DNA from: a virus | Length of the DNA stretch: 64,000 nucleotides | Virus record (IMG/VR): IMGVR_UViG_3300046787_000099 | Span: 32,001 to 96,000 of that record | Direction: 5' to 3' (one strand) | Shown: positions 1 to 58,318 of the stretch, one piece after another | Position numbering within the stretch: position 1 is the first letter of the stretch | Layout of the letters: each line of letters begins with the position of its first letter | Made by a program: the position numbers and the translations under genes | The notes under the pieces: model-generated | The model's input: the letters and a program-made list of their open reading frames with translations, nothing else | Told to the model about the DNA's origin: nothing | Databases searched by the model: none

Positions 1-3000
1 CCTGTGATATCTAAACTGTTTTTACCACTATCAATCTTGAACATCTTCTGTCCCTTACCAATACTATCTCTTAAATAGATAGTAGCTTCTTTGAACATGT
101 CTCTTTCACCAGAAGTAATCTTATCACTAAGAATATCTTTAGGATTGAAGACAATACCAAACTGACGTAAGAATGCAGTCATCATAGCAATCTGCTGAGA
201 ATCATTAGCTGCATCAAATGAGATAGACTTAGTAGATCCTTTCTTACCTTCATACACTCTGTCTTTAGCATTGTATGTGAAGTAAGGATTGTTCTTTCCT
301 TGTAACACCTTTCTGATGTTATTCATAAACTCCTCACTAGCTTGTCTAGCAGCAGTAGTGAAGTTAGAATCACCTACAACAACCTCACCATTCTCTAATA
401 CAAATACGTTCTTAACATTAGGACTTTGCTTCTTGAATGATCTCCAGAATGCAGCAAGTAACTGAATGTCATGAATGTTATTTAACTTAGATAAGTCAGC
501 AGGCTGTGATAAGTCACTGTTCTTAGTAAGACGTGTATATATAGTTTGATAGTTGATATCGTCATTAGCTAATGCACGAATACCTTCCATCATCTCTTCC
601 AAGTTACGAGACTTATTAACACGGTTCATAATAGCCATGTAAGCCTGAGTAGATGGAATTAACTGTACACCATTGATAGATGAGTAGATTAACTCTAGCT
701 TACCATTGGTATCATTCTTCTTAACGTAAGGAAGAGTAGATAATAAAAGCTTGACAGCAGGATTGATCTTTCTGAACAAGTCAATCTTTGTTGCATCATC
801 ATTAATCTCCTTAGTCTTATCTTCTTCATTACGAACAAGTTCATCGTTCTCATCGAACTCAATGTTATAAGACTTAAGTCTCTCTTGATGTTTAGCAGCA
901 ATCTGATTCCAGTTCTCCTCATTGTCAATAGCTTTCCACATTGCATTTGACTTAGCAATGATTGGAGCAGCTTCTTCTTTAGTCATTGTACCATTAGCAA
1001 TGTTAGCTAATGCAGCCTTCTTAGACTTAAGAACTGTCTTCTGTAAATCCTCTTTAAGCTTAGCATACAACTCACTCTTCTTCTTGTAAAGGTCATTCAC
1101 CTTAAACAAGCTCTTGTTGTTTACAACTAAGTCTTTTAGAGTTAAGTAAGTCATTTGCTGAATCAAGTCATGTTGCTCAGCACCTGTAAAGTTTGCAATG
1201 CTATACTCAGCTTCATCAGAAGCGTATACATCTTCAATGTTAATAAATCCTTTCTTAGCAAAAGAAAGAGATGAGTGCATTGGAGAATATTGTTTGTAAT
1301 ATCCTGTACCAATCTTCTTGAATAACTTATCTGTGTTGCTAACAGCAGTAGGACCAGTGAAGAACTCTTTGATGAACTTAACTAAGTCATGGAACAACTG
1401 TCCGATAAATGACTTAGGACCTTCCACCTTAGGGTTAAGAGTATATTCTCTAAACTCTTCTGCTAGTTGCTCCTTAGCTTCAAGATCTGTAGCCTCAGAG
1501 AACTTAACATCACGACCTGTTGGTCTGTCAACAAATGATCCTTTTCTAGACTTGAACTCATTTAGAATATCTTGTCTCTCTTGAGGACTGGTGAACATCT
1601 TCCACACTGCCTCAAATACTTCGTGGTAAGCTGTACCAGCTTCAGCATTTTGATATAGATAGATAGCTCCATCCTTCAACATACCCCAAGCCTGCATACC
1701 ATTAGTAGCAGTGATTACATTCTTAACACGATATACAGGAACGTTAGGGAAGTTAGCTTTTAACCAACCTTCTAACTGTGTCCAGTTCTCACCTTCAAAT
1801 TGTTTAGCTTGCTCAGATACAATAGCACGTAACACCTCATCATCAGCCTCATCATTCATTTGGCTATTCATTCTTTCATCCTCAGATGCAGTGTATGTTT
1901 CGTCAAACGCATCAGGAATAGTAAACTCTAACTCATCTTCTTCTTCAGCAACGTATGCAGCAATGTCAGACTTGTATTTGTTTAATATACTTCCTGCAAT
2001 GATTCCTTTAGCAGCATTAGCATCAATACCTTTAGCAGCCATCAATGCTTCGATAGCAGCAGTATTGTTTGCACTATCAGATACAAATCCAAAACCAGCA
2101 GTAGGATCAGCTTGGTTAGCAGCAGCATCTAATGTGAACTCAATTGTTCCTACAGTAGGAATAGTTACACTGTTTGCTTTCTTACCAGTTAAATCAATAA
2201 CAGTTGGTTGTGCAGGAGCTTTAGGTTTTAATGCTGCTAGTTCTGCATCATACTTAGCATTGATTTGTTGTGCTTTAGTAGTATTTGTAAAATAGAAATA
2301 ACTTTGGAAATTAGTAAAATCTTTATCTCCTTTAAACTTTACTCCATATTTAGAAACTGCCTCTACTTCAACTTCTCTATCTGTTTCATTATCTTGTCGT
2401 GCTCCTTTGAATTGTGTCCAGAAGATACCCTTATCTCCTTTTCTAGCAGTTCTTAAACCATTAGCTTCTGCCTTTAACTCTTCTTTTCTTCTTCTCTCTA
2501 TATCAGCTACAGGATCTGCAGCAGGAGCTTGTGTCTTCTTAGGAGCTCCAGGAAGAATAGGTTTAACAGCAACAGGTTTTGGTGCAGGTACAGGAGCAGC
2601 AAACTTATCTGCTTCTTGCTTATCAATAAAGTAGATGCCTTTTCTATTGACACCTGGTCTCATGTTTACAGAAAGAGGAATCTCAGATCCTTCTCTGTCT
2701 TTACCAGATAATAAGAATGATTGATAGTTAGGCCATCTCTTAGTCTGAATCTCTCCAGCATCAGTGATGTTTGTAATCTCAGCATACTCATCATCTGATT
2801 TAATCATAGACAAGTTAGCATTGTTAAAGATGCCTGTTAATGCAGCAACAATTTCATCCTTGCTATTCTCTAATGCTTGAGGAGCAAATGGGAATGTCTG
2901 TACAGGGTTAGAGATTAATAACATTCCGTTATCAAACCACACACTGTTATTACCTGCAGGTTTAGATTCACCTTGAGGAGTTGTTGGTGTACCCCAATAA

Positions 3001-6000
3001 ACTACTGATCTTAGATACTTGATTAATCGTTGAGATTCTAGAGACTGGATATTTCCATCTCGTTGTGCATTCTCAGCAATCTTATGAATCACTTTGAAAA
3101 GAAGATTAGCTTCCTTCTCTGAGATACGTCTGTTATCAAGCTTTACATATTCATTACCCACCTTAAGAAATGCCTTAGCAATAGGGTTCTTGAATGATGA
3201 TGTTCCACCAGTTAATGTATCATTAGTTGTAGGGATAGTGATTACAGGTCCATTAGCTAATTCGTCCTCAGTAATTAATCCTGCTTCAATAGCACCAGCT
3301 CTACCATCTTGTATTTCTTTACCATTATCATCTGTTAACTTCATTGGAATACCAAATGAAGAATTGACAGGGAAAGTAGAAATCTCAGTAGATGCTATTG
3401 TGGACTTTCTCCAAGCATCGTATTGGTTTCTTAATAACTCTTTTGTTTCCTCAGGAGTAGTCTTTCTGAACATGTCAGTGCTACCACCCTTAGTGTATGC
3501 TTTACTCCACTTCAATCCTGGACCAGGCTTAACTTGAAATACAGCATTCTCTAATGCATTAGCTCCTTCAGGAATCACCTCACCATTCTTGTCAACTAAC
3601 TGAAGAGATCCATCTTCATTTTGTTGAACTAACACCATAGCAATAGTTTCCTTAGGATCTACATCCTTAGCATACTCACCGCCTTGATCTTTTAAGTATT
3701 GAGTTAGACCAGGGATAAGTTTATCCTCATTGTTGTATGTAACATATACACCACGGATCTTATCTCTGTTAGGAAAGTTATCTAAGTTAAAACCAAACTG
3801 ATTAGCTCTATCATTACCAACAATGTTATCAGAGTTGATAGTACCGTTCATCACGTTAGCATCACTCTTCTTACTATCTGGTTCTCTATCACCACCCTCA
3901 AGCAATTCTCCTTGTGTATCTAAAGATGCAACAAGTTCTGCATTAAGTGCTTCATTCTTCTTTAACTCTTCCTCTTCTTGTCTAGCTTTTTCTAGTTTCT
4001 CAAATGCAGCTTTAGCCTTCTTAGCAAAAGACTTCTCAATAGCATTCATCAACTCTGGATTATCAAACGAATTGACAACCTCTAACTTATCTACACCTTC
4101 AGCATTAGCTGCTATCTTTTGTAACTCAGTAAGTCCTTCTGCTTTCTCCACCTCAGCATCAATAACATCATTAAGAATGTCATTGATTTCTTTAGATGAG
4201 TTATCTGCTTCACTTAGTTTGTAAGCCTTGAAATCATCTGGCTTCAGGTAAGTAACAGAACCATCAGGCATCTTCACTTCAAACTCTCCACCTAATGTTG
4301 TAGCAAGAACAGTCATCTTAGGAGCAAGATATAACTGGTTGCCAATACGCATAGCAGGTTGTGATAAAGAATACTCCTTACCAATCTCTAACTCTTTACC
4401 AATAGTTTTTGTCTTACCATCCTCTTCGATGTCCTGCTTAACAATAGCAGCAGGTTGTTCAGTTACACCAATAGGTAACTCCTCTACATCTTGGTAATCT
4501 TCAGGATTGTTTTTGATCTTGTCATACTCATCGATGTATAACTTTCTACGAAGAGACATCTCCATTACATCAGATAAATTCTCTTTCAATCTATCTTTTG
4601 TCTCACTCACTACATCAAGATCATTGATCTGTGCCAATGCTTCTTTAGTAGCAGCAACATTCACCTTCTTATCTTTGATAAGAGATTGTAACACATCTGT
4701 TGTGTTAATACCACTTGCTAATAATGAGTTATTAACTTGAGGAATACGTTGGTCATAGTTGTTGATCTTTGCCATAGCATAGACCATCTTATCCATAACT
4801 GATGGATTGTAAACTGGTTTACCATTCTCATCACGTACATCTGCATATCTATCTTCAACTACAGTGTATAACTCAGCTACACTCTTTGTAAGAGCCTCTA
4901 AGTTATTAAGTCTTTCATTGAACTGAGGTCTTGTCTCATTAGGATTAACAATACCACTATTAACAAGCTCATTGAATCCTTCTTGTGTAGCAGCTTGAGT
5001 CTTGTAATATCCTAACTCTTGTGCAACAAAGTCTTCTTTACCATACTTGATGCGAGGCATTAAGTAAGATAGAGTGTAGTCATGCTCAGCATCTTTCTCT
5101 TCTAACACATCATTTGCTAAGATAGCATTCTGTCTAGCTTTCTGAGAACCAATACCAATACCTACATACTTAACTTGATCACGAAGAACATCTTGAATCT
5201 TACTGTTATTCAAAGCAGCAATAGCAATCTCTGTATTAACAGCTCTTTGTCCACCTGTTCCTAAGAACCCTCTTTCTTTAACCTCACCTCTAGCTTGTTG
5301 AATACCTCCAGAGATACCACCAATAAGCATACTCTCTAAACCTTCCTTAGTACTTAAAGCTTGATCAACACCTTCTCCAAAGATGTTTCCCATTGCTCCA
5401 TACATACCAGTAAGTAGGCTAGAAGTATCCTCTCTATTCTTGTAAGCTTTGTCAAAGAAGTTATACACACCTGTTTGAATAGCATACTGTGCTCCTTCTT
5501 CAAATGCTTCTGAAGGAGAGAATACTAAACCACCAAGATTTCTTGTAGTAACAGCAGCCTTGCCAAGAATAGTTTTAGGAGTGAATGCAGTAACTACACC
5601 ACTTACTTCTTTTTGCTCAAGCTCATTAATTAATGCTTTATCAAATCTTCTAGATGATCCTAAGATTTTAGGAAGCTGAAGATAGTTAGTTGCTGATAAC
5701 AACAAGAAGTTTGCACCTAATGTATTGTTACCCACTTGACTAGCGTAGTCATTGATGTTATCTAATTCTTCACCTTGTGGGTTTCTACCATATACTCTCT
5801 TGAACTCTTCAATAGCATTAGCTCTGAAGTTGTTCATGTTCTGAAGACTCTCAATAGAACCTTCTCCCAAAGCACCCATTGTTGAAATGGTAACACGCTC
5901 ACCATTCTTTAGAATGTTTTGTGCAAATGGATTCTTTAAATACTTCTGTGCTACAGATGTTAATGCTCCATCAAATGCTGTATATTTCTCAGCTTGAGGA

Positions 6001-6686
6001 ACAAGAGACATAGCTTCTTCAACTGCTGTAGCAGTTTCCATACCACGACCAGCTTGAACCAATCGGTTAGTGATACCAATAGCTCCTAAAGCTTTTGCCC
6101 ACAAAGCACCACCACCTAATGCACCTAGAGAATATCCTAGGTTCTTCATCACTTTATCAGACCAGAAGTTACCTGTCAATAAGTTATCAGGAGACCACCA
6201 CTCAGCATCTCTTTCTTGAGTGCTATAGAAGTTAGGAAGAGCATCCTCGAAATACTTGTTTACCTCATCTGCTTTATTGTTAACCTCATTGTCATAAAGA
6301 GATGAAAGTTTACCTGTTTCAAATACTTGGTTAACTCCATAAAGAAGACCAGCAGTACCAGCTAAGAAAGATGAAGCAGCAGTTCCTGTCATCTTAATAG
6401 CACCATTAAGAAACTTCTCACCAATACCCTGTTGTTGGGCATACATCTCCTCTAGATCCTGACCAGGTCTACTAGATGCATATCTGTTTCCAGTATATAC
6501 AGAAGATAGAGGAATAGAAGAAACTCCTGGTTTAATATTACTTACTGTTTGATTAAAGTAATCATTAAACGATAACTGACTTCCTGGTGTCTGTGTGCTA
6601 ACGGGAACAGGTCTAGGAACACTTCTATCAGGTACTGTTGGAGCTTCAAGATAACCTCTTTGGTTGATTATTTTTTCTTCTGGCAT
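1..6686 (-). CDS. Giant virion cargo/ejection protein (>2228 aa, 3' end outside window); probably the crAss-type giant protein that carries or neighbours the virion RNA polymerase
   Basis: ATG at 6686 (MPEEKIINQRGY) lies just after the stop of 6688..9546. The same frame is open wherever I translated it and still open at position 3. It is absent from the ORF track, presumably because no stop falls inside the window. It has Gly/Ala hydrophobic segments (GYSLGALGGGALWAKALGAIG) and a zincin-like GTAYHEVFE...EQLAEEFREY. No RNAP DxDxD motif was seen in this part. Confidence 0.8.
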   Translation of the reverse strand, partial: MPEEKIINQRGYLEAPTVPDRSVPRPVPVSTQTPGSQLSFNDYFNQTVSNIKPGVSSIPLSSVYTGNRYASSRPGQDLEEMYAQQQGIGEKFLNGAIKMTGTAASSFLAGTAGLLYGVNQVFETGKLSSLYDNEVNNKADEVNKYFEDALPNFYSTQERDAEWWSPDNLLTGNFWSDKVMKNLGYSLGALGGGALWAKALGAIGITNRLVQAGRGMETATAVEEAMSLVPQAEKYTAFDGALTSVAQKYLKNPFAQNILKNGERVTISTMGALGEGSIESLQNMNNFRANAIEEFKRVYGRNPQGEELDNINDYASQVGNNTLGANFLLLSATNYLQLPKILGSSRRFDKALINELEQKEVSGVVTAFTPKTILGKAAVTTRNLGGLVFSPSEAFEEGAQYAIQTGVYNFFDKAYKNREDTSSLLTGMYGAMGNIFGEGVDQALSTKEGLESMLIGGISGGIQQARGEVKERGFLGTGGQRAVNTEIAIAALNNSKIQDVLRDQVKYVGIGIGSQKARQNAILANDVLEEKDAEHDYTLSYLMPRIKYGKEDFVAQELGYYKTQAATQEGFNELVNSGIVNPNETRPQFNERLNNLEALTKSVAELYTVVEDRYADVRDENGKPVYNPSVMDKMVYAMAKINNYDQRIPQVNNSLLASGINTTDVLQSLIKDKKVNVAATKEALAQINDLDVVSETKDRLKENLSDVMEMSLRRKLYIDEYDKIKNNPEDYQDVEELPIGVTEQPAAIVKQDIEEDGKTKTIGKELEIGKEYSLSQPAMRIGNQLYLAPKMTVLATTLGGEFEVKMPDGSVTYLKPDDFKAYKLSEADNSSKEINDILNDVIDAEVEKAEGLTELQKIAANAEGVDKLEVVNSFDNPELMNAIEKSFAKKAKAAFEKLEKARQEEEELKKNEALNAELVASLDTQGELLEGGDREPDSKKSDANVMNGTINSDNIVGNDRANQFGFNLDNFPNRDKIRGVYVTYNNEDKLIPGLTQYLKDQGGEYAKDVDPKETIAMVLVQQNEDGSLQLVDKNGEVIPEGANALENAVFQVKPGPGLKWSKAYTKGGSTDMFRKTTPEETKELLRNQYDAWRKSTIASTEISTFPVNSSFGIPMKLTDDNGKEIQDGRAGAIEAGLITEDELANGPVITIPTTNDTLTGGTSSFKNPIAKAFLKVGNEYVKLDNRRISEKEANLLFKVIHKIAENAQRDGNIQSLESQRLIKYLRSVVYWGTPTTPQGESKPAGNNSVWFDNGMLLISNPVQTFPFAPQALENSKDEIVAALTGIFNNANLSMIKSDDEYAEITNITDAGEIQTKRWPNYQSFLLSGKDREGSEIPLSVNMRPGVNRKGIYFIDKQEADKFAAPVPAPKPVAVKPILPGAPKKTQAPAADPVADIERRRKEELKAEANGLRTARKGDKGIFWTQFKGARQDNETDREVEVEAVSKYGVKFKGDKDFTNFQSYFYFTNTTKAQQINAKYDAELAALKPKAPAQPTVIDLTGKKANSVTIPTVGTIEFTLDAAANQADPTAGFGFVSDSANNTAAIEALMAAKGIDANAAKGIIAGSILNKYKSDIAAYVAEEEDELEFTIPDAFDETYTASEDERMNSQMNDEADDEVLRAIVSEQAKQFEGENWTQLEGWLKANFPNVPVYRVKNVITATNGMQAWGMLKDGAIYLYQNAEAGTAYHEVFEAVWKMFTSPQERQDILNEFKSRKGSFVDRPTGRDVKFSEATDLEAKEQLAEEFREYTLNPKVEGPKSFIGQLFHDLVKFIKEFFTGPTAVSNTDKLFKKIGTGYYKQYSPMHSSLSFAKKGFINIEDVYASDEAEYSIANFTGAEQHDLIQQMTYLTLKDLVVNNKSLFKVNDLYKKKSELYAKLKEDLQKTVLKSKKAALANIANGTMTKEEAAPIIAKSNAMWKAIDNEENWNQIAAKHQERLKSYNIEFDENDELVRNEEDKTKEINDDATKIDLFRKINPAVKLLLSTLPYVKKNDTNGKLELIYSSINGVQLIPSTQAYMAIMNRVNKSRNLEEMMEGIRALANDDINYQTIYTRLTKNSDLSQPADLSKLNNIHDIQLLAAFWRSFKKQSPNVKNVFVLENGEVVVGDSNFTTAARQASEEFMNNIRKVLQGKNNPYFTYNAKDRVYEGKKGSTKSISFDAANDSQQIAMMTAFLRQFGIVFNPKDILSDKITSGERDMFKEATIYLRDSIGKGQKMFKIDSGKNSLDIT

Positions 6687-39527: not shown

Positions 39528-39551
39528 CATTCACACAAAACAACTAACAAG

Positions 39552-40476: not shown

Positions 40477-40573
40477 CTGGTATGGGTAGACAACGATACT
40501 CACACATACATTGAGAGATGTATATTTATAAACATTTTTGTTTACATATTATTCACATACAATCAATAAAGAC

Positions 40574-41764: not shown

Positions 41765-41801
41765 TATTAATCTATTTATTCACATTTTAAATAACACAAT
41801 C

Positions 41802-46275: not shown

Positions 46276-46547
46276 TGGCAAGTAGTAAAGGAAGAACCTA
46301 TGTTGATTGCTATCACCCAACAAACGATGATTTGTGGTGCCAAATTGAGGTGTTCTGGAAGCACAACTATGAACCACCAGTTATGTATTATCAAGATGGA
46401 TCAGGTTATCCTGGTGATGACTCAATAGAGATCATAGAGACAAAGATGATTACATACTGTGGAGATCCAGTACAGCAAATGGTAGAACCACATTGGATCG
46501 ATTGGGACAAGGTGATGGAAGAATTAAACATGGAAGATTTGAATTAA
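46275..46547 (+). CDS. Hypothetical phage protein
   Basis: YEPPVMYYQDGSGYPG motif. Confidence 0.65.
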   Translation: MASSKGRTYVDCYHPTNDDLWCQIEVFWKHNYEPPVMYYQDGSGYPGDDSIEIIETKMITYCGDPVQQMVEPHWIDWDKVMEELNMEDLN

Positions 46548-46548
46548 C

Positions 46549-46920
46549 ATGAAAAGAAGAAAGAAAGTAGAACACAGGTTAGTTAGAACTAATCCTATTG
46601 AGCAGCATTATACAGACTGTTTGGACTGTGGTCATGTTCACAATGTAGAGTCATTAATGAAATACTACAAGAGACAAGGAGCACATTCAATGCACTATCT
46701 GTGTGATGAATGCAACTGTAGGATGAGATTGACAACCACAAAACTAGGTTATCTAGTTTTTAACAAACAATCAGTAAATAGCTATGGCAAGAAACAATGG
46801 GATGATATATTTCAGGTGGCTGAGATCGAGATTCCACAAGAGGTTAAAACATGGTTGGTTAGAACGTATCAACCACCAAGAAAACGAGCAAGTAACGAAT
46901 TACCCACAATTAACAATTAA
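46549..46920 (+). CDS. Zn-ribbon protein
   Basis: CLDC...CDEC. Confidence 0.6.
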   Translation: MKRRKKVEHRLVRTNPIEQHYTDCLDCGHVHNVESLMKYYKRQGAHSMHYLCDECNCRMRLTTTKLGYLVFNKQSVNSYGKKQWDDIFQVAEIEIPQEVKTWLVRTYQPPRKRASNELPTINN

Positions 46921-46942
46921 CTCACAATTAAACAATAACAAG

Positions 46943-47305
46943 ATGAAATTATTACAATTTAACGCAGAACAGTTCGAAACAGGTAACTACGATTTAGTAA
47001 CAGCAGATGGTAAAGCAGTGAAGTTTGGGCATATTGACAAAACAGAACGTGCAGCTATCTTTGGCTACATTAATTCATTTGCATATATCTGGGACATTAA
47101 CGGTGTATGTCTTACTAACAAGACTATAAATAATAAGAATGATTTAAGATTGAAGCACAAGGCTCAAACCTTATACATCACTATCACACTTGGTAAGAAT
47201 GATAGAATCAATACGTATGCTAGTTCAGATGGTCAACCAAAGGTGAAGAGCGGATCAAAGTTATTGAAACGTTTAGAAGTTCAGTTTGATGAATTAGATT
47301 TCTAA
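46943..47305 (+). CDS. Hypothetical phage protein
   Basis: Probable start MKLLQF; LVTADGKAV...WDING...DLRL pattern. Confidence 0.65.
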   Translation: MKLLQFNAEQFETGNYDLVTADGKAVKFGHIDKTERAAIFGYINSFAYIWDINGVCLTNKTINNKNDLRLKHKAQTLYITITLGKNDRINTYASSDGQPKVKSGSKLLKRLEVQFDELDF

Positions 47306-47309
47306 GACA

Positions 47310-47462
47310 ATGAAAGTAGCAACTATCAGTGTACAGTCAGTCTTTGAGCATATTGACAAAGAACTGAAAAAGGAGTATCTTCGTGATAAACAACGGTGGA
47401 TGGAGAAGTGGAATGTTAGAGAGATCAAAACATACACACCAAAGACCGCATTAGAACGATGA
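47310..47462 (+). CDS. 50-aa hypothetical protein (not in ORF track)
   Basis: MKVATISVQSVFEHIDKELKKEYL...; fills operon gap. Confidence 0.55.
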   Translation: MKVATISVQSVFEHIDKELKKEYLRDKQRWMEKWNVREIKTYTPKTALER

Positions 47463-47465
47463 TAT

Positions 47466-47699
47466 ATGTCTAGAAGTACTAAGAAGCCAATCATTAAGGA
47501 TGCGCCTCGTAATGCCAAGAAATCAGCCCTCTATTGGAGAGCTGTACGTAAGGGAATGAAGAGAGCTGTGAACAGATTAGCACGTGGTGAGGAGGTAGAA
47601 ATACCTTCTCATCATAGCTTAGTTAATGATTATGATTATAGTGACTTTACATTACATCCTTATGATGAGGAATCACGAAAGAAGTTTAAACGTAAATAG
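47466..47699 (+). CDS. Basic hypothetical protein
   Basis: MSRSTKKPIIKD...NDYDYSDF. Confidence 0.65.
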   Translation: MSRSTKKPIIKDAPRNAKKSALYWRAVRKGMKRAVNRLARGEEVEIPSHHSLVNDYDYSDFTLHPYDEESRKKFKRK

Positions 47700-47701
47700 T
47701 T

Positions 47702-48058
47702 ATGGAAGAAGAGTTCATATCATACGAGCAAGCATTAGCCTTAAAGGAATTAGGGTTTGATGAAAAGTGTTTTAAAACATACAATGAAGATAAAGAATTA
47801 ATATTCTATTGTACTGGTAAATATTATTACCCTGCCCCACTTAAACAACAAGTATTTAGATGGTTTATGGAGAAGTATAAACTTGTGCATGAAATTAATG
47901 TTTATTCCACAACAGATGGGTACGCATTTAGCTTTAAAATATTGTGCAAAAAGTACACTCCATTTATAGATGCAAATGATACTTGGACTACCTACGAAGA
48001 AGCAGAGAATGCTTGTATAGATAAACTTATAGAGATAGCTAAACAACAAGACAAATGA
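47702..48058 (+). CDS. Small phage protein, cassette 1
   Basis: EFISYEQALALKELGFDE...APLKQQVFRWF...TYEEAENACIDKLIEI; ends KQQDK. Confidence 0.75.
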   Translation: MEEEFISYEQALALKELGFDEKCFKTYNEDKELIFYCTGKYYYPAPLKQQVFRWFMEKYKLVHEINVYSTTDGYAFSFKILCKKYTPFIDANDTWTTYEEAENACIDKLIEIAKQQDK

Positions 48059-48381
48059 AACTATACACAGAAGAAGAATTAAGACATGTTGTTAAAGTTG
48101 CTTTTTGGCAAGATTTTGAGAATGGTACCACCGAAGATGATATAATAGGTTTTGCTAATCCTATCGAACTACCAAGTGATGATGCAATAGAAGCTGCAGC
48201 ATTAGATACATATCGTGAGTATCCTAACAATCCAAAAGAACACCCTGAATGGACGTACAATAAAGATGTTAATGCTCCTAGAAAAAGAAGAGCATTTAAC
48301 ATTGGTGCTCATTGGGTATTGAATCACATTAATCAACAGAAGGACATTGATGTCCCTCTGTCAAAACAACAAGACAAATGA
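48055..48381 (+). CDS. Small phage protein, cassette 2
   Basis: MKLYTEEE...PIELPSDDAIE; ends KQQDK. Confidence 0.7.
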   Translation: MKLYTEEELRHVVKVAFWQDFENGTTEDDIIGFANPIELPSDDAIEAAALDTYREYPNNPKEHPEWTYNKDVNAPRKRRAFNIGAHWVLNHINQQKDIDVPLSKQQDK

Positions 48382-48575
48382 AAAATGAATCAATAATTAA
48401 CGTTAAGCTCTCAGATGAGGTTAGCGAGTTTTTACGTATGAATTCTACTATGGTAGAAATTGATGGATCGAGATATTACCAACCAGCTCAATTTTGGTAC
48501 ACACAAGCTTTTCTGGGAAATGAAAACATATTTCGGGTACATACAAAACTACCAACTTATCAACCAGACAAATGA
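48378..48575 (+). CDS. Small phage protein, cassette 3
   Basis: 65 aa; ends QPDK. Confidence 0.6.
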   Translation: MKNESIINVKLSDEVSEFLRMNSTMVEIDGSRYYQPAQFWYTQAFLGNENIFRVHTKLPTYQPDK

Positions 48576-48793
48576 GTGATATAGCACTTAGTCATTGGGT
48601 AGAGTTTGACTTTAATGACATATCTACTAGACCAACATCTTATGGTAAGCATCTAGTATGCAGGAAAGATGGTAAGATTCATTGGGAAACATGGAATGGT
48701 TCTGGATGGGCATACAATCACAATTCAATCACGCACTGGGCAGTGATTAAGTCACCTAAACAACAAGGCAATGGGATGGAAATCAACAATTGA
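48572..48793 (+). CDS. Small phage protein, cassette 4 (DUF551-like)
   Basis: WVEF...P...LVCRKDG...W....ITHW....P pattern. Confidence 0.6.
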   Translation: MSDIALSHWVEFDFNDISTRPTSYGKHLVCRKDGKIHWETWNGSGWAYNHNSITHWAVIKSPKQQGNGMEINN

Positions 48794-48965
48794 TATAACA
48801 AGGACGCAAGCCCTTGCTCTTGTCTTAGATTACGCATTACAATGTGGTAATTTGTCAGATTCAGAACTAGAGGACTTATTAGAAACCCTTGGTTATGGAG
48901 ACAATCAGACATTGCCTTATTTTGGATACAATTTTAACATAACTAGACAACAAGACAATGAGTGA
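48771..48965 (+). CDS. Small phage protein, cassette 5
   Basis: MGWKSTIDITR...; ends RQQDNE. Confidence 0.6.
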   Translation: MGWKSTIDITRTQALALVLDYALQCGNLSDSELEDLLETLGYGDNQTLPYFGYNFNITRQQDNE

Positions 48966-49161
48966 TATAGCAATGTGTGCTGGAACTGAGTGTCCACGCA
49001 AGAATAACTGTCATAGACATACGGCTGAGTACAATGAATATGGTCAGTCCTATTTTGTGACACCACCTATCAAGGAGGATGGTAGCTGTGAGTATTTCTG
49101 GGACAACAAAGACTATCCAGCAGAAGGAGCATTCCATAATAAACTAGAAGACAATGGATGA
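48958..49161 (+). CDS. Small Cys-rich phage protein, cassette 6
   Basis: DIAMCAGTECPRKNNCHRH...QSYF..PP....CEYFW. Confidence 0.65.
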   Translation: MSDIAMCAGTECPRKNNCHRHTAEYNEYGQSYFVTPPIKEDGSCEYFWDNKDYPAEGAFHNKLEDNG

Positions 49162-49525
49162 TAAACCAATATTCAAGAGTAGAGGTCCTGGTGTACCTGG
49201 TACATTTACAGGTGAAGAAGTTGTATCCGAAGAGACAATAAAAGAATTAGCTAGAAGGATAAATGGTGGACACACAATGGAAAGAAAACAAACAGCAGTA
49301 GAATGGCTTGAAGAGTTGTTGCACTTTGAGTGTAAATATAGTCTTAATAATGAAGTAATAATTAATTATGATGTATTGGATAACATTATTATGAAAGCCA
49401 AACAAATGGAGAAAGAGCAGATAGTGGAAGCTTGGTATAAAAGAGGCAACTCAATAGTTCCAAGATATTATTTAAAAGAAAATATAAACGGAGAGCAATA
49501 TTATAACGAAACTTATGGCAAATAA
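49154..49525 (+). CDS. Small phage protein (KQTAVEWL...EKEQI...EQYYNETY type)
   Basis: Motifs shared with the downstream paralog. Confidence 0.7.
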   Translation: MDDKPIFKSRGPGVPGTFTGEEVVSEETIKELARRINGGHTMERKQTAVEWLEELLHFECKYSLNNEVIINYDVLDNIIMKAKQMEKEQIVEAWYKRGNSIVPRYYLKENINGEQYYNETYGK

Positions 49526-49757
49526 AACAGCAATGCAAGAAATGTATGGTGATTTAATAGAAAAACATATTGTGTATACAAAAGCAGGAATGATTAACGA
49601 GGCTACTTCTTTAGTATCATCAATTGAATTAGCAGAACACTTAATAGGTAAAGAGAAAGAACAGATACAAAAAGCATTTCATGATTCTGTTGTAAGTATG
49701 GCTGTAGGTAGAATCATGACTCCAAATCAATATTACAACGAAATCTATAACAAATAA
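49515..49757 (+). CDS. Paralog of preceding gene
   Basis: KTAMQE...EKEQI..A...QYYNEIY. Confidence 0.7.
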   Translation: MANKTAMQEMYGDLIEKHIVYTKAGMINEATSLVSSIELAEHLIGKEKEQIQKAFHDSVVSMAVGRIMTPNQYYNEIYNK

Positions 49758-49768
49758 GCATGAAAGTG

Positions 49769-49800
49769 CTTGATCATTACGATAATGTTATGTATCTTTG
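49769..49800 (+). promoter_or_regulatory. Bacteroidetes-type promoter directly before GIY-YIG gene (probably leaderless)
   Basis: CTTG (49769-49772), N20, TATCTTTG (49793-49800); ATG 4 nt later. Confidence 0.65.
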
Positions 49801-49804
49801 CTAA

Positions 49805-50557
49805 ATGAAGAAACCAGTATCAGGTGTTTATATAATACAGAATCTTGTGAACAACAAAGTCTATGTAGGGGCATCAAAAAACCTCTATGATAGACTTTGT
49901 ATGCACAAGGTTCAGTTAAGAGCTAATAGACACCACAATGCTCATTTACAAGCAGCTTATAATTTACAAGGAGAAGACAGTTTTGTATTTGATGTACTAG
50001 AAGAATGTGATGAGGAGTTTATCTACTCACAGGAAAACTACTGGTGCATTATGTTAAACTCTCATAATCGAGAATTAGGCTATAATTGCGATTCTACGGG
50101 TCCAAATGGTAAATGTGGAGTAAGTGATGAAACAAGAGTTAAAATGTCAGCAGGGGCAGAGAAAAGAGTTGTACAAGTATATACTATATACGGAAAACAT
50201 GTAACCGATTTATCAGACTTACATACAGCAAGTAAGTATTTTGAAACAGCCCCACCAAACATTCATAGAAAGATGAATGTGCTCTTTAACAAACGTAACA
50301 TCATTGACTCAACATTAACCAAACATCTAGTACTTGATGCTAATACAGAAGTTACAGAAGTTGTATCTTATTGGAATAACATATTTGATAAAATTAGAGC
50401 ACAAACAGGTAAATACAAGGTTTATGACTGCTTTGATAATTTCATAGGTTCATGTAATTCTAGAGAACTTTGTACAATTTTAGAGACTTCTATTCATGCT
50501 ATCACAACTAGCGTAAGAAGAGGAACATATTTAAGAACACTAAAAATAACAAGATGA
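49805..50557 (+). mobile_element. Free-standing GIY-YIG homing endonuclease
   Basis: SGVYIIQNLVNNKVYVGASKNLYDRL...H.N.HLQ.AYN...E...GYN; NUMOD-like C-terminus; overlaps the polB start. Confidence 0.85.
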
Positions 50558-52503
50558 AAGTAATAGTAAGTGACATAGAAACTATGGCTGAGTACTTCTT
50601 ATGTATGTGTTATGAGCCTGATACAGACAAATGGATACCGTTTGAAGTAAGCCAGTGGACTAATACATTAGATGCAATGATTAATTACTTTGAAAAGAAG
50701 AATGATCATTACTTTGTATTCTATAATGGTTTGAGGTTTGATAGTCAAGTGCTTGAGTTTATTATAAGAAACAATCATTCATGGCATGAACTAGGTGGAT
50801 TAGAAATCTGTGCTATAATTGCACAAAAGGCTCAAGATACTATACATGATGCTAATTATGAGGTATTTCCAGAATATAAGGAATCTGAACTTAGCTTTAA
50901 GGTGCTTGATTTGTTCAAGATAGCGCATTTTGACAATAAAAATCGAATGGTGAGTCTAAAGAGACTAGAGTTTGAGATGGATCTAGAGAACATCGAGGAG
51001 ATGCCTATACATCACACAAAAACAAACATGACCAAAGAAGAGATTGCTCTCACTATGGACTATTGTCGTAATGATGTACACGCAACCTATGAGTTCTACA
51101 AGATTACTACAGGCAACTGTGATCATCCATTGTACAAGGGTAACAATCAGATAGAGCTAAGACAAGACATCCAAGAAGAATTTGGTATACCATGTCTTAA
51201 TTACTCTGATAGTAAGATTGGTGATGAGATGATTAAGAAGTATTATTGCGAACAGAAAGGTATTAAACCAGACATGCTTCCTAAGAAAGGATTCTTTCGT
51301 AAGGAGATTAGAGTGAAGAACTGTATTGCAGATTATGTTGAGTTCAAGACACCACAGCTAAAACTCTTCCTAAAGAAGATGAAAGGCACAGTGCTTGGAT
51401 TATCAGATGATTTCAAAGAGCACATTACATTCTATGACAATGTGTATTCATTCATGAAAGGTGGTTTACATACAGAGAACAAACCAGAAATATTTGAAGC
51501 TGATGAGAATTATGAGATCATTGATTGGGACGTGTCTAGCTATTACCCTGCTATTATCATTAATAATAACCGCTATCCCTCTCATCTTGGTAAAGAGTTT
51601 CTTCGTGGTTACAAACAGATGTTTGACCGTAGGCTCGAACTTAAGCCCCAGGCAAAGAAGGACAAACGCATCAAGGGTATTGTTGGTGCTCTTAAGCTTG
51701 CTGTTAACTCTGTGTATGGTAAGTCTAGTGATATGCAATCTTGGATCTATGACAGGCAGCTTACTATGTTTACAACTATTACTGGCGAGCTGTCTCTATT
51801 TATGCTTATTGAAGCTTATGAACTAGAGGGCATACATGTAATATCAGCTAACACTGATGGTGTAACAATTAAGATTAAGAAAACAGACCTAGATAAGATG
51901 CATGCAATCAATGCATGGTGGTCAGAACTAACTCAATATGAACTCGAAAGAACAGATTACAGTAAGATTATTTTCTCAACTGTTAACGATTACCTCGCGG
52001 TTAAAACAGATGGAGAGATTAAGAAGAAAGGAGATTTTCTTACTGACTTTGAGCTTCATAAGAATAAGTCTGGTAGGGTGGTACCAATTGCCCTTGAACA
52101 GTATTTCATCAATAACACTCCTGTTGCTGATACTATTCGCAATCATAGAAACATATATGATTTTGCAATGCGGCAACGAGCTACAAAGGATTTCCACTTT
52201 GAAGGAAGATCTGATAATGGCACAACAGTCTACAACAAGCTTATTAGATACTATGTATCCATTAGTGGGGAAAAGCTTCTTAAGGTCAAGAATGAAGATT
52301 GTGACTCAAGAGCAGCAGCTATATCACAAGTGGAGGCAGGAGAATGGTTGATGACAGTGTGTAATCACCTATCACCAAAGCATCCACTAGATAACATTAA
52401 CCATTCTTATTATATTGAGAAGGCAGAACGTATTATTAACAAGATTAATTATCAGGGCAAGAAAGTACCTGTGATTGATCCTAATCAACTAAGTTTATTC
52501 TAA
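50554..52503 (+). CDS. polB: Family B DNA polymerase
   Basis: Exo motifs DIE, YNGLRFD, YCRND; Pol motifs DVSSYYP, KLAVNSVYGK, ANTDG; C-terminal QLSLF clamp-binding-like motif. Confidence 0.92.
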   Translation: MKVIVSDIETMAEYFLCMCYEPDTDKWIPFEVSQWTNTLDAMINYFEKKNDHYFVFYNGLRFDSQVLEFIIRNNHSWHELGGLEICAIIAQKAQDTIHDANYEVFPEYKESELSFKVLDLFKIAHFDNKNRMVSLKRLEFEMDLENIEEMPIHHTKTNMTKEEIALTMDYCRNDVHATYEFYKITTGNCDHPLYKGNNQIELRQDIQEEFGIPCLNYSDSKIGDEMIKKYYCEQKGIKPDMLPKKGFFRKEIRVKNCIADYVEFKTPQLKLFLKKMKGTVLGLSDDFKEHITFYDNVYSFMKGGLHTENKPEIFEADENYEIIDWDVSSYYPAIIINNNRYPSHLGKEFLRGYKQMFDRRLELKPQAKKDKRIKGIVGALKLAVNSVYGKSSDMQSWIYDRQLTMFTTITGELSLFMLIEAYELEGIHVISANTDGVTIKIKKTDLDKMHAINAWWSELTQYELERTDYSKIIFSTVNDYLAVKTDGEIKKKGDFLTDFELHKNKSGRVVPIALEQYFINNTPVADTIRNHRNIYDFAMRQRATKDFHFEGRSDNGTTVYNKLIRYYVSISGEKLLKVKNEDCDSRAAAISQVEAGEWLMTVCNHLSPKHPLDNINHSYYIEKAERIINKINYQGKKVPVIDPNQLSLF

Positions 52504-53304: not shown

Positions 53305-53427
53305 AGTATTATTGGATTATTCTTACAAAGATAATACATAGAATAGTACTAAACTACTGAGAATTGCATTTTACCAAGAACTTGATAAAAGTTCTTTATT
53401 TATTCACATTTTAACACAAACACAATT

Positions 53428-57646: not shown

Positions 57647-58318
57647 ATGGCAAGCAAATTAATCGGGATTGTGGGCTCAACTGGTACAGGTAAATCTACC
57701 TCTATCAAGCACCTAGATCCAAAGGAAACCTACATCATTAACGTAGCAAAGAAAGAGTTACCATTCAAAGGAGCAGACAAATTGTACAATGCTGAGAACA
57801 AGAACTACAAGGAGATTGATGATGCAAATGAGATCACTCGTTTGTTAAAGACTATCTCTGAGAAAGCTCCTCACATTAAGAACATTGTGATTGAGGATTC
57901 AAACTACATCATGGGCTTTAACATTGTAGCTAAAGCAACTGAGGTTGGCTTCACTAAGTTTTCTATCATGGCAAGAGACATGGTTGAATTATTCAGAGAA
58001 GCTCGTAAATTGCGTGACGATTTGAAGGTGTTCTACTTTACACACCCAGAGACTATTGAAGAATCAGGTGAGGTGGTAGGATACAAGATCAAGACAGCAG
58101 GTAAATTGATCGATAATCAAATTGTATTAGAGGGTTTATTGACTATCTGTCTCTACACTTATGTGGATGAGAACAAAGATGGTACATCTACCTATAACTT
58201 CGTAACCAATAGGTTTAAGAAGTACCCTGCTAAGAGTCCTGATGGTATGTTTGCAGACATCAAGATTCCTAACAACTTACAAGAAGTAGCAAACAAAATA
58301 GACGAGTATTATAACTAA
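57647..58318 (+). CDS. AAA-family ATPase (Sak4/AAA_24-like)
   Basis: GSTGTGKS, IVIED, KTAGKL, PAKSPDGMF. Confidence 0.8.
   Translation: MASKLIGIVGSTGTGKSTSIKHLDPKETYIINVAKKELPFKGADKLYNAENKNYKEIDDANEITRLLKTISEKAPHIKNIVIEDSNYIMGFNIVAKATEVGFTKFSIMARDMVELFREARKLRDDLKVFYFTHPETIEESGEVVGYKIKTAGKLIDNQIVLEGLLTICLYTYVDENKDGTSTYNFVTNRFKKYPAKSPDGMFADIKIPNNLQEVANKIDEYYN

Follow-up and report, generated by a model that had tools for sequence, protein, structure and literature searches.

A conserved stop/start joint between small genes of a crAss-like phage and its probable part in cassette exchange among Bacteroidota-type phages

Introduction

How can small genes pass singly from phage to phage and still be expressed? 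Turnover of anti-defence and host-takeover genes is fastest in the accessory regions of phages, and the movement of individual small genes between phages is understood only in part, with the published cases resting on the promoter/terminator cassettes (promoter early stem-loops, PeSLs) of T4-like phages. The question is raised anew by a locus in an uncultured phage, which lies within a 64,000-nucleotide (nt) window (bases 32001–96000 of the complete 111,973-bp IMG/VR virus record IMGVR_UViG_3300046787_000099, with direct terminal repeats and 37% GC; positions given here are those of the window unless stated otherwise). Six consecutive small genes at 47702–49161 are connected there by a recurring short sequence, hereafter the joint, which carries the end of one gene and the start of the next. 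An earlier note, made from the sequence alone, had proposed that this repeat is a standard connector combining microhomology with a coupled translation start, by which accessory genes could be inserted, deleted or reordered. Here we ask how specific the joint is, what in it is conserved, which phages carry it and whether genes have been exchanged at it.

Results

A recurring joint in a six-gene array

Six copies of a motif with the consensus AAACAACAAGACAA(A)TG form consecutive stop/start overlaps between 48041 and 49156, as the earlier note had described, and each of the six supplies the ATG of the next gene (Table 1). The copies at 48041–48060 and 48364–48383 are one identical 20-mer, and the others read CAACCAGACAAATG (48561), AAACAACAAGGCAATG (48758), AGACAACAAGACAATG (48945) and AAACTAGAAGACAATG (49141). 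All six are read by the upstream gene in one constant frame, AAA CAA CAA GAC AA., and the encoded tails are, in order, KQQDK, KQQDK, YQPDK, KQQGNGMEINN, RQQDNE and KLEDNG. The proteins themselves are mutually unrelated (all-against-all blastp, E > 0.2), and for five of the six neither Pfam nor PHROGs gave a function. An opening shared by two cassettes was also borne out, with genes 48572 and 48958 both beginning ATGAGTGATATAGCA.

The motif is confined, within this genome, to the 1.1-kb array. Matches with at most three mismatches number 12, against 1.6 expected, and none of 100 shuffles reached 12. A 14-nt position weight matrix (PWM) scores the six junctions at 16.9–22.4 bits, whereas the 127 other gene starts of the genome have a mean of −8.4 and a maximum of 10.5 bits; in a leave-one-out version of the matrix, five of the six copies still score above every other gene start. 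Ordinary starts are thus not matched, other junctions lack the motif as had been claimed, and the joint is not the general start context of the phage, an explanation that the PWM test rules out. Local tandem duplication is likewise ruled out, the proteins being unrelated and the motif occurring in other phages at other genome positions.

What is conserved at the joint is the nucleotide sequence. Among 21 distinct tail sequences of the family of the first cassette (47702), the codons AAA, CAA, CAA and GAC never vary; in the same tails, five of the seven conserved codons upstream of the motif (alignment positions 7–13) vary synonymously. The Asp codon is GAC in the motif in 18 of 18 cases and, nine codons upstream, GAT in 19 of 21. 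No family member was seen that keeps KQQDN with varied codons. In one family the same bases serve two frames, being read as DHKKTTRQ followed by a stop and as DHKKQQDNE..., and at some loci the stop of the upstream gene comes before the motif or shares bases with it, and the motif is then effectively an intergenic leader. The standard frame AAA CAA CAA GAC AA. is found in 68 of 78 complete junctions, as would be expected if joints must be interchangeable.

Spread across phage lineages

Relatives were collected with the DNA polymerase as an anchor, which gave 328 related IMG/VR contigs, 80 of which were kept (978 kb; loci carry L numbers below). Megablast and blastn searches with positions 46500–50600 against 50,697 deposited phage genomes returned nothing useful, and the polymerase is at most 32% identical to anything from cultured phages, with crAss-like genomes among the best matches; all comparisons therefore rest on IMG/VR contigs. 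At a threshold of ≥15 bits, the PWM finds 67 sites in these relatives, 65 of them on the gene strand. Perfect 14-mers lie on the gene strand in 31 of 31 cases with (A)TG immediately next, and the spacing between motif and ATG is of two kinds only, 0–1 nt. Sites in the relatives occur 0.2–4.5 kb upstream or 3.4–7.2 kb downstream of the polymerase, and in the genome and its relatives they are limited to the replication/accessory arm.

Exact scans of IMG/VR found the 21-base form AAACAACAAGACAATGNNTGA in 38 contigs and AAACAACAAGACAAATGA in 32, the reversed control giving none. In 596 Gb of bacterial and archaeal genomes the 21-base form has 10 matches, one of which is the phage fragment L156. 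The carriers include complete phages of 64–65 kb and 104 kb, in which the capsid protein and polymerase of the window phage have no detectable homologue, although positive controls matched, and one 65-kb carrier genome has a six-copy array of its own. A KQQEQ spelling, AAACAACAAGAACAATG, was absent from the 80 polymerase-anchored loci and from this genome. The motif is therefore an element widely shared by related and unrelated phage lineages and not a local invention.

Exchange of cassettes at the joints

Joints connect genes in many combinations. The 78 distinct junctions bring together 56 protein families in 64 different pairings, and 18 families occur both before and after a joint. Downstream of the 47702 family, 18 different partner families are found, and the family of cassette 6 is the commonest downstream partner, preceded by seven different upstream families. 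Gene content and order at the array vary gene by gene among relatives, in agreement with the earlier note. In the closest relatives, whose polymerase is 87–88% identical to that of the window phage, 47702 is absent or replaced by a diverged allele, 48055 is absent, and 48378 is kept at 96–98% nucleotide identity; 48572 is unique to the window, 48771 is missing from close relatives, and 48958 belongs to a common family. One distant homologue of 48055 (30%) occurs in L008.

Similarity breakpoints, which had been expected to fall in the motif, do so for the 48771 and 48378 cassettes and for high-scoring segment pairs (HSPs) bounded by joints. In a three-way alignment of the 48771 cassette from the window, L103 (from a complete 104-kb phage) and L098 (from a complete 65-kb phage), the left-hand sequence is unrelated in all three. 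Identity between the window and the two other loci begins at TAAACAACAAG and ends just past ...GACAATGA, and the window departs from both just past AGACAACAAGACAATGA. Substitutions within the cassette fall at third codon positions in 14 of 16 and 21 of 26 cases which, together with the joint-bounded identity, identifies 48771 as a real gene that moved as a unit. The 73-aa (amino acid) cassette before it ends in NGMEINN, a tail encoded by the 5' end of the cassette that follows, translated in the frame of the upstream gene, and the same tail is found on another gene of L103.

L149 again matches the window (98%) from base 1 of J2 to a point 15 nt past J3; the next gene there is another one that opens with the same five codons. 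A simple J1 × J2 deletion fits this locus only in part, since its 47702 allele is diverged as well: what was replaced extends from immediately behind the 47702 ATG as far as J2. An in-frame fusion exactly at a joint is present in L103 (5700–6035; ...LILKQQD/IYWRT..., the slash marking the point of fusion), and its two partners, a 42-aa TAGSLTREIML family and an IYWRTDKPP family, are separate genes elsewhere.

Seven internal HSPs, representing three cassettes, are joint-bounded at both ends in both genomes, and 59 are so bounded at one end. We also counted HSP ends (HSPs of ≥85–90% identity) within 20 nt of a site in non-redundant loci: such ends were found at 85–94% of motif starts, 46–60% of neighbouring motif-free starts, 36–42% of distant starts and 8% of random positions. 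Motif-free boundaries are also frequent breakpoints, so the motif favours exchange and is not required for it.

Table 1. Cassettes, joints and a recombination-related gene in the window.
Feature	Coordinates	Strand	Description
Cassette 1	47702..48058	+	118 aa; widespread small-protein family; conserved tail ...EEAENACIDKLIEIAKQQD(K/N); homologues in 23 loci
Joint J1	48041..48060	+	AAACAACAAGACAAATGAAA; 47702 stop (TGA) overlaps 48055 ATG; 22.4 bits; identical to J2
Cassette 2	48055..48381	+	108 aa; missing from closest relatives L005, L007 and L149
Joint J2	48364..48383	+	same 20-mer as J1; 98% similarity to L149 starts at first base
Cassette 3	48378..48575	+	65 aa; 96–98% nt identical in L005, L006 and L149; left neighbours differ there
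Joint J3	48558..48588	+	TATCAACCAGACAAATGAGTGATATAGCA; similarity to L005 and L149 stops at 48590, then a different gene there
Cassette 4	48572..48793	+	73 aa; no homologue in any fetched locus
Joint J4	48758..48773	+	AAACAACAAGGCAATG; left boundary of horizontally shared 48771 cassette
Cassette 5	48771..48965	+	64 aa; 91.5% nt identical in L103 and L098, 87% in L130
Joint J5	48945..48965	+	AGACAACAAGACAATGAGTGA; right boundary of shared 48771 cassette
Cassette 6	48958..49161	+	67 aa; Cys-rich family, M[AS]DI.MC...CYRHT, phrog_20586
Joint J6	49141..49161	+	AAACTAGAAGACAATGGATGA; most diverged copy, 18.2 bits
Gene started by J6	49154..49525	+	123 aa; ends in second joint type (QYYNETYGK-stop/ATG)
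Sak4-like single-strand annealing protein	57647..58318	+	phrog_2872, E 7e-52; AAA_24 below cut-off

Features around the array

The gene started by J6 (49154) contains an internal 163 nt that are 92–94% identical to genes of other lineages. It ends in a second kind of stop/start joint (49492–49529, + strand), ..TATTAYAACGAAACTTATGGnAAATAA, which encodes the tail QYYNETYGK with its stop and has the next ATG embedded in it. This second joint occurs at 21 sites in the loci, with 21 copies on the gene strand against one on the other, and in some phages the KQQDN joint and this one are fused (YYNETYKQQDNG followed by a stop). Within the 47702 gene, a half-motif CACTTAAACAACAAG (47838–47852, + strand; PLKQQVFRW) sits in an island that is 92–98% conserved at the nucleotide level across the family, the remainder of the gene being less than 70% conserved; the half-motif may be an internal crossover point or a domain boundary.

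Beside the variable array lies another mobile gene, which is not joined by the motif. It encodes a GIY-YIG homing endonuclease (49805–50557, + strand) and abuts the DNA polymerase gene with an ATGA overlap at 50554. The endonuclease gene is missing from L005 and L007 and is found at the same site, with 56–58% identity, in L024, L026, L030, L031, L036 and L041. Many start codons in both genome arms are preceded, about 14–20 nt upstream, by TTAAAC or TTTAA, which often takes in the upstream TAA stop and may mark start regions generally in this group of phages.

The phage and its possible host

Three marks in the sequence identify the window phage as crAss-like. A 3,945-aa protein (genome 26849–38686, − strand; window 1–6686) has the motif DFDID at residue 3052, the catalytic signature that defines the crAss-like virion RNA polymerase (Drobysheva et al., bioRxiv 10.1101/2020.03.07.982082). 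The minus strand carries the portal, terminase and major head genes and the plus strand the replication genes. Among the gene starts listed for the genome, the DNA 5' of the start is A/C-rich without a visible Shine-Dalgarno site, as in Bacteroidota phages.

The bacterial-genome match L156 (NZ_JBIPPD010000368.1, 2,728 bp) was binned in a Lake Mendota Flavobacterium metagenome-assembled genome and is a fragment of a phage relative, with a polymerase 77% identical to that of the window phage, four neighbouring genes and a joint preceding the Cys-rich gene. This is a weak hint of a Flavobacterium host, or a binning artefact.

Discussion

A probable start and coupling element that may double as a crossover point

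The ..GACAATG form of the joint has A at −3, −6, −12 and −13, positions at which measurements in Flavobacterium johnsoniae identified A as a positive determinant of initiation (Baez et al., 2019; PMC6847099), and the ..GACAAATG form has A at three of them. Joint regions are predicted to be less structured than the genome as a whole (unpaired probability 0.74 vs. 0.63), and the upstream stop lies 1–23 nt past the ATG. The A positions, the low structure and the nearby stops support a role in translation, and we infer that the joint would serve there as a start and coupling element.

Taken together with the comparative evidence, this leads us to a probable explanation in which a portable stop/start joint serves both as a translation start and coupling element of Bacteroidota type and as a crossover point for cassette exchange. 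In the mRNA, the A/C-rich 14-mer before the ATG would form a Shine-Dalgarno-independent initiation region suited to Bacteroidota ribosomes and, with the upstream stop so close, consecutive small early genes would be translated as a coupled chain. The same 14–25 nt, in one standard frame, stand between many gene pairs in many co-circulating phages, and for that reason joints would be the preferred crossover point for short-homology recombination. A crossover within a joint would swap, delete or insert a whole gene; the upstream gene would retain a tail that is short and harmless, with a stop close by, and the incoming gene would retain its ready start. Crossovers inside the joint are indicated by its exact sequence, its standard frame and its occurrence on either side of shared cassettes; that the exchange occurs by homologous recombination, and by which enzyme, we infer.

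A broader version of this explanation, which we put forward tentatively and consider somewhat doubtful, is that the joint is a community-wide plug-and-play adaptor through which unrelated Bacteroidota phages may exchange single accessory genes by short-homology recombination with no dedicated recombinase. If so, it would be an integrase-free functional counterpart of the integron, kept because the genes attached to it spread, and different spellings would define separate exchange pools.

Several observations weigh against a joint with both roles. The breakpoint excess at motif boundaries over neighbouring motif-free boundaries depends on the threshold, with Fisher p values from 0.0003 to 0.8, and the junction samples of the exact-pattern scans were ascertained by the motif itself. 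Cassette 1 starts with no motif in front, the left edge of the array (47466/47702) is a breakpoint without one, and in L005 the 48378 gene is joined to 47466 without it. In the ..GACAAATG variant, −3 is a C; genes of the phage that lack the motif start well enough, and the exact conservation of the motif would be accounted for just as well by a sequence-specific regulator. A repeat of 14–25 nt is short for efficient homologous recombination, and no enzyme was found to co-occur with the motif. The Sak4-like single-strand annealing protein of the window phage is a candidate recombinase for the joint, and a protein of this kind is absent from five other complete motif-bearing phages. The connector proposed in the earlier note thus stands as regards variable content and order, breakpoints and motif specificity, and is to be amended in that exchange does not require the motif. 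Its proposed drivers, a Sak4-like ATPase and a single-stranded DNA-binding protein, fare less well: the Sak4-like protein is real, but with its absence from the five carriers, and with no single-stranded DNA-binding protein identified by Pfam or PHROGs among the proteins tested, the proposal is unsupported, as is Sak4 as an obligatory partner.

Alternative explanations

The alternative that survives best, though we think it unlikely, holds that the motif is only an expression signal, either a strong start region or the operator of a sequence-specific RNA-binding repressor or nuclease, carried along as a gene's leader, and that the shuffling results from illegitimate recombination and selection for intact genes, with crossovers to which the motif contributes nothing. 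Such regulators exist in T4, where RegA and RegB act at early-gene start regions as RNA-binding repressor and nuclease. An expression signal would fit the finding that 36–60% of motif-free boundaries are also breakpoints, the motif-free left edge of the array and the copies that are intergenic, and the exact G at −4 and C at −2 exceed what an A-rich leader needs and would fit a specific binding partner. The start-associated sequence (SAS) of Cluster K mycobacteriophages provides a precedent for start-linked repeats without a known recombination role (Pope et al., 2011; PMC3203893). This alternative sits poorly, however, with shared cassettes that have a joint at both ends and in which similarity stops inside the joint on both sides, and with the upstream genes of at least 35 families that end in the motif in one frame, since random insertion of a leader together with its downstream gene would not give one-frame upstream tails. 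The fusion of two cassettes in frame exactly at a joint in L103 also counts against it, and a search for a regulator common to the carriers, which was not exhaustive, found none.

Less probable again is a motif that is maintained solely because it offers homology for recombination: a selfish adaptor by which the attached genes spread, without any particular function in translation. Its letter-for-letter identity across unrelated phages with otherwise unalignable proteins, the sufficiency of generic A-rich leaders for other genes and the standard frame would all be consistent with this. A patch of homology, however, need not abut a start codon, and here the ATG is effectively within the motif, with two spacings only and all 31 perfect copies followed by ATG. 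Moreover, the motif keeps to the gene strand and matches all four of the positive positions measured for Flavobacterium initiation.

We regard as very improbable that a dedicated site-specific recombinase acts on the repeat, as in integrons, or that the repeat is a PeSL-like promoter placed before each gene. The array layout of promoterless-looking cassettes and the PeSL precedent (PMC2839356) invite such an interpretation, but the complete 112-kb genome yielded no tyrosine recombinase (PF00589) in a search to which 14 of 14 control genomes responded, and neither inverted repeats nor attC-like hairpins were found at the joints. Between 46500 and 50600 there are 16 sigma-70-like promoter sites against 19.9 expected, none of them at joints, in a model built on sigma-70-like elements; terminators, too, are lacking at the joints. 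Nor is there any intergenic space, the joints lying inside overlapping reading frames. Given the lack of promoters, terminators, hairpins and integrase, we reject both a promoter or PeSL-type unit and an attC/integrase system, and the likeness to an integron array drawn in the earlier note holds as an analogy of outcome, not as a mechanism.

Finally, a conserved C-terminal KQQD(N/K) peptide tag, for example a degradation or interaction signal, is scarcely credible, and we reject it because the reading frame changes and synonymous sites do not vary: of 78 upstream genes, 68 do read the motif as KQQD, but the other ten read it in other frames, one family changes frame yet keeps the bases, some copies lie beyond the stop codon, four codons lack synonymous variation with the locally unpreferred GAC in use, and the residues after KQQD vary freely (K, NG, NE or NGMEINN before the stop).

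Comparison with known systems

That boundary sequences are conserved in lambdoid phages is an older idea. Nearest in behaviour to the joint are the PeSLs of T4-type phages. These regulatory cassettes recur between small, non-essential genes of hyperplastic regions; their copies recombine with the insertion, deletion or replacement of single genes, neighbouring copies yielding excised mini-circles, and they have been proposed as a vehicle of horizontal transfer (Arbiol et al., 2010; PMC2839356). Copies of the joint likewise flank small genes, and insertions, deletions and replacements between relatives end in them. PeSLs, however, are intergenic and longer and consist of a sigma-70-type promoter, a terminator hairpin and a Shine-Dalgarno site, none of which the joint has; the joint lies inside overlapping coding frames, would act, if at all, in translation, and belongs to crAss-like and other Bacteroidota-type phages. 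Lacking both defining features, promoter and stem-loop, the joint is not a PeSL. Separately from the joint, ATTCACA[CT] occurs 23–26 nt before the ATG of four plus-strand early-region genes (39529–39540, 40551–40562, 41778–41789 and 53402–53413), each site preceded by a T-rich CTTTATTT stretch and a hairpin; the 12-nt pattern has five matches against 2.2 expected. These sites are candidate terminator-plus-promoter units, nearer to PeSLs in form than the joint is.

Nearest in form is the SAS, a 13–14-nt asymmetric repeat with the consensus GGGATAGGAGCCC and a Shine-Dalgarno core AGGAG able to pair with 16S rRNA, which lies 3–7 bp from the start in the phages of a single cluster only; its function is presumed to be translational, though unproven, and no role in gene exchange has been proposed (Pope et al., 2011; PMC3203893). 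It shares with the joint a single orientation and a place directly 5' of the start codons, mostly ATG, of certain non-structural genes belonging to different families; diverged phages conserve it, and it is all but missing from bacterial genomes. The joint (AAACAACAAGACAA), in contrast, is rich in A and C and has no Shine-Dalgarno site; it adjoins the ATG or overlaps with it, forms the coding tail of the gene before it, is found across lineages and coincides with exchange breakpoints.

With integron cassettes the array shares small, unrelated, promoterless-looking genes that are gained, lost and reordered as units at a recurring site, but the joint has no integrase, no attC-type inverted repeat or folded single-strand site and no attI/Pc platform, and its site is within coding sequence. 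Finally, the joint resembles the Kozak-like start regions of Bacteroidota in the lack of a Shine-Dalgarno site, the A at −3, −6, −12 and −13 and the low secondary structure (PMC6847099), and differs from them in that one exact 14-mer is reused, whereas host and other phage starts vary in sequence.

Implications for Bacteroidota phages

The comparative evidence supports, as our central interpretation, a repeat-mediated modular shuffling in which the repeat would be a joint at the level of translation, in crAss-like phages and others of Bacteroidota type. The joint is common, letter for letter, to crAss-like and unrelated phages of hosts without Shine-Dalgarno sites. If the interpretation is true, a joint that works at the level of translation would be a concrete, testable rule of gene flow for Bacteroidota phages. 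It would also provide a marker for mobile accessory genes in metagenomes, a way to delimit the phages that share a gene pool and a candidate natural start or coupling element for expression in Flavobacteria and Bacteroides.

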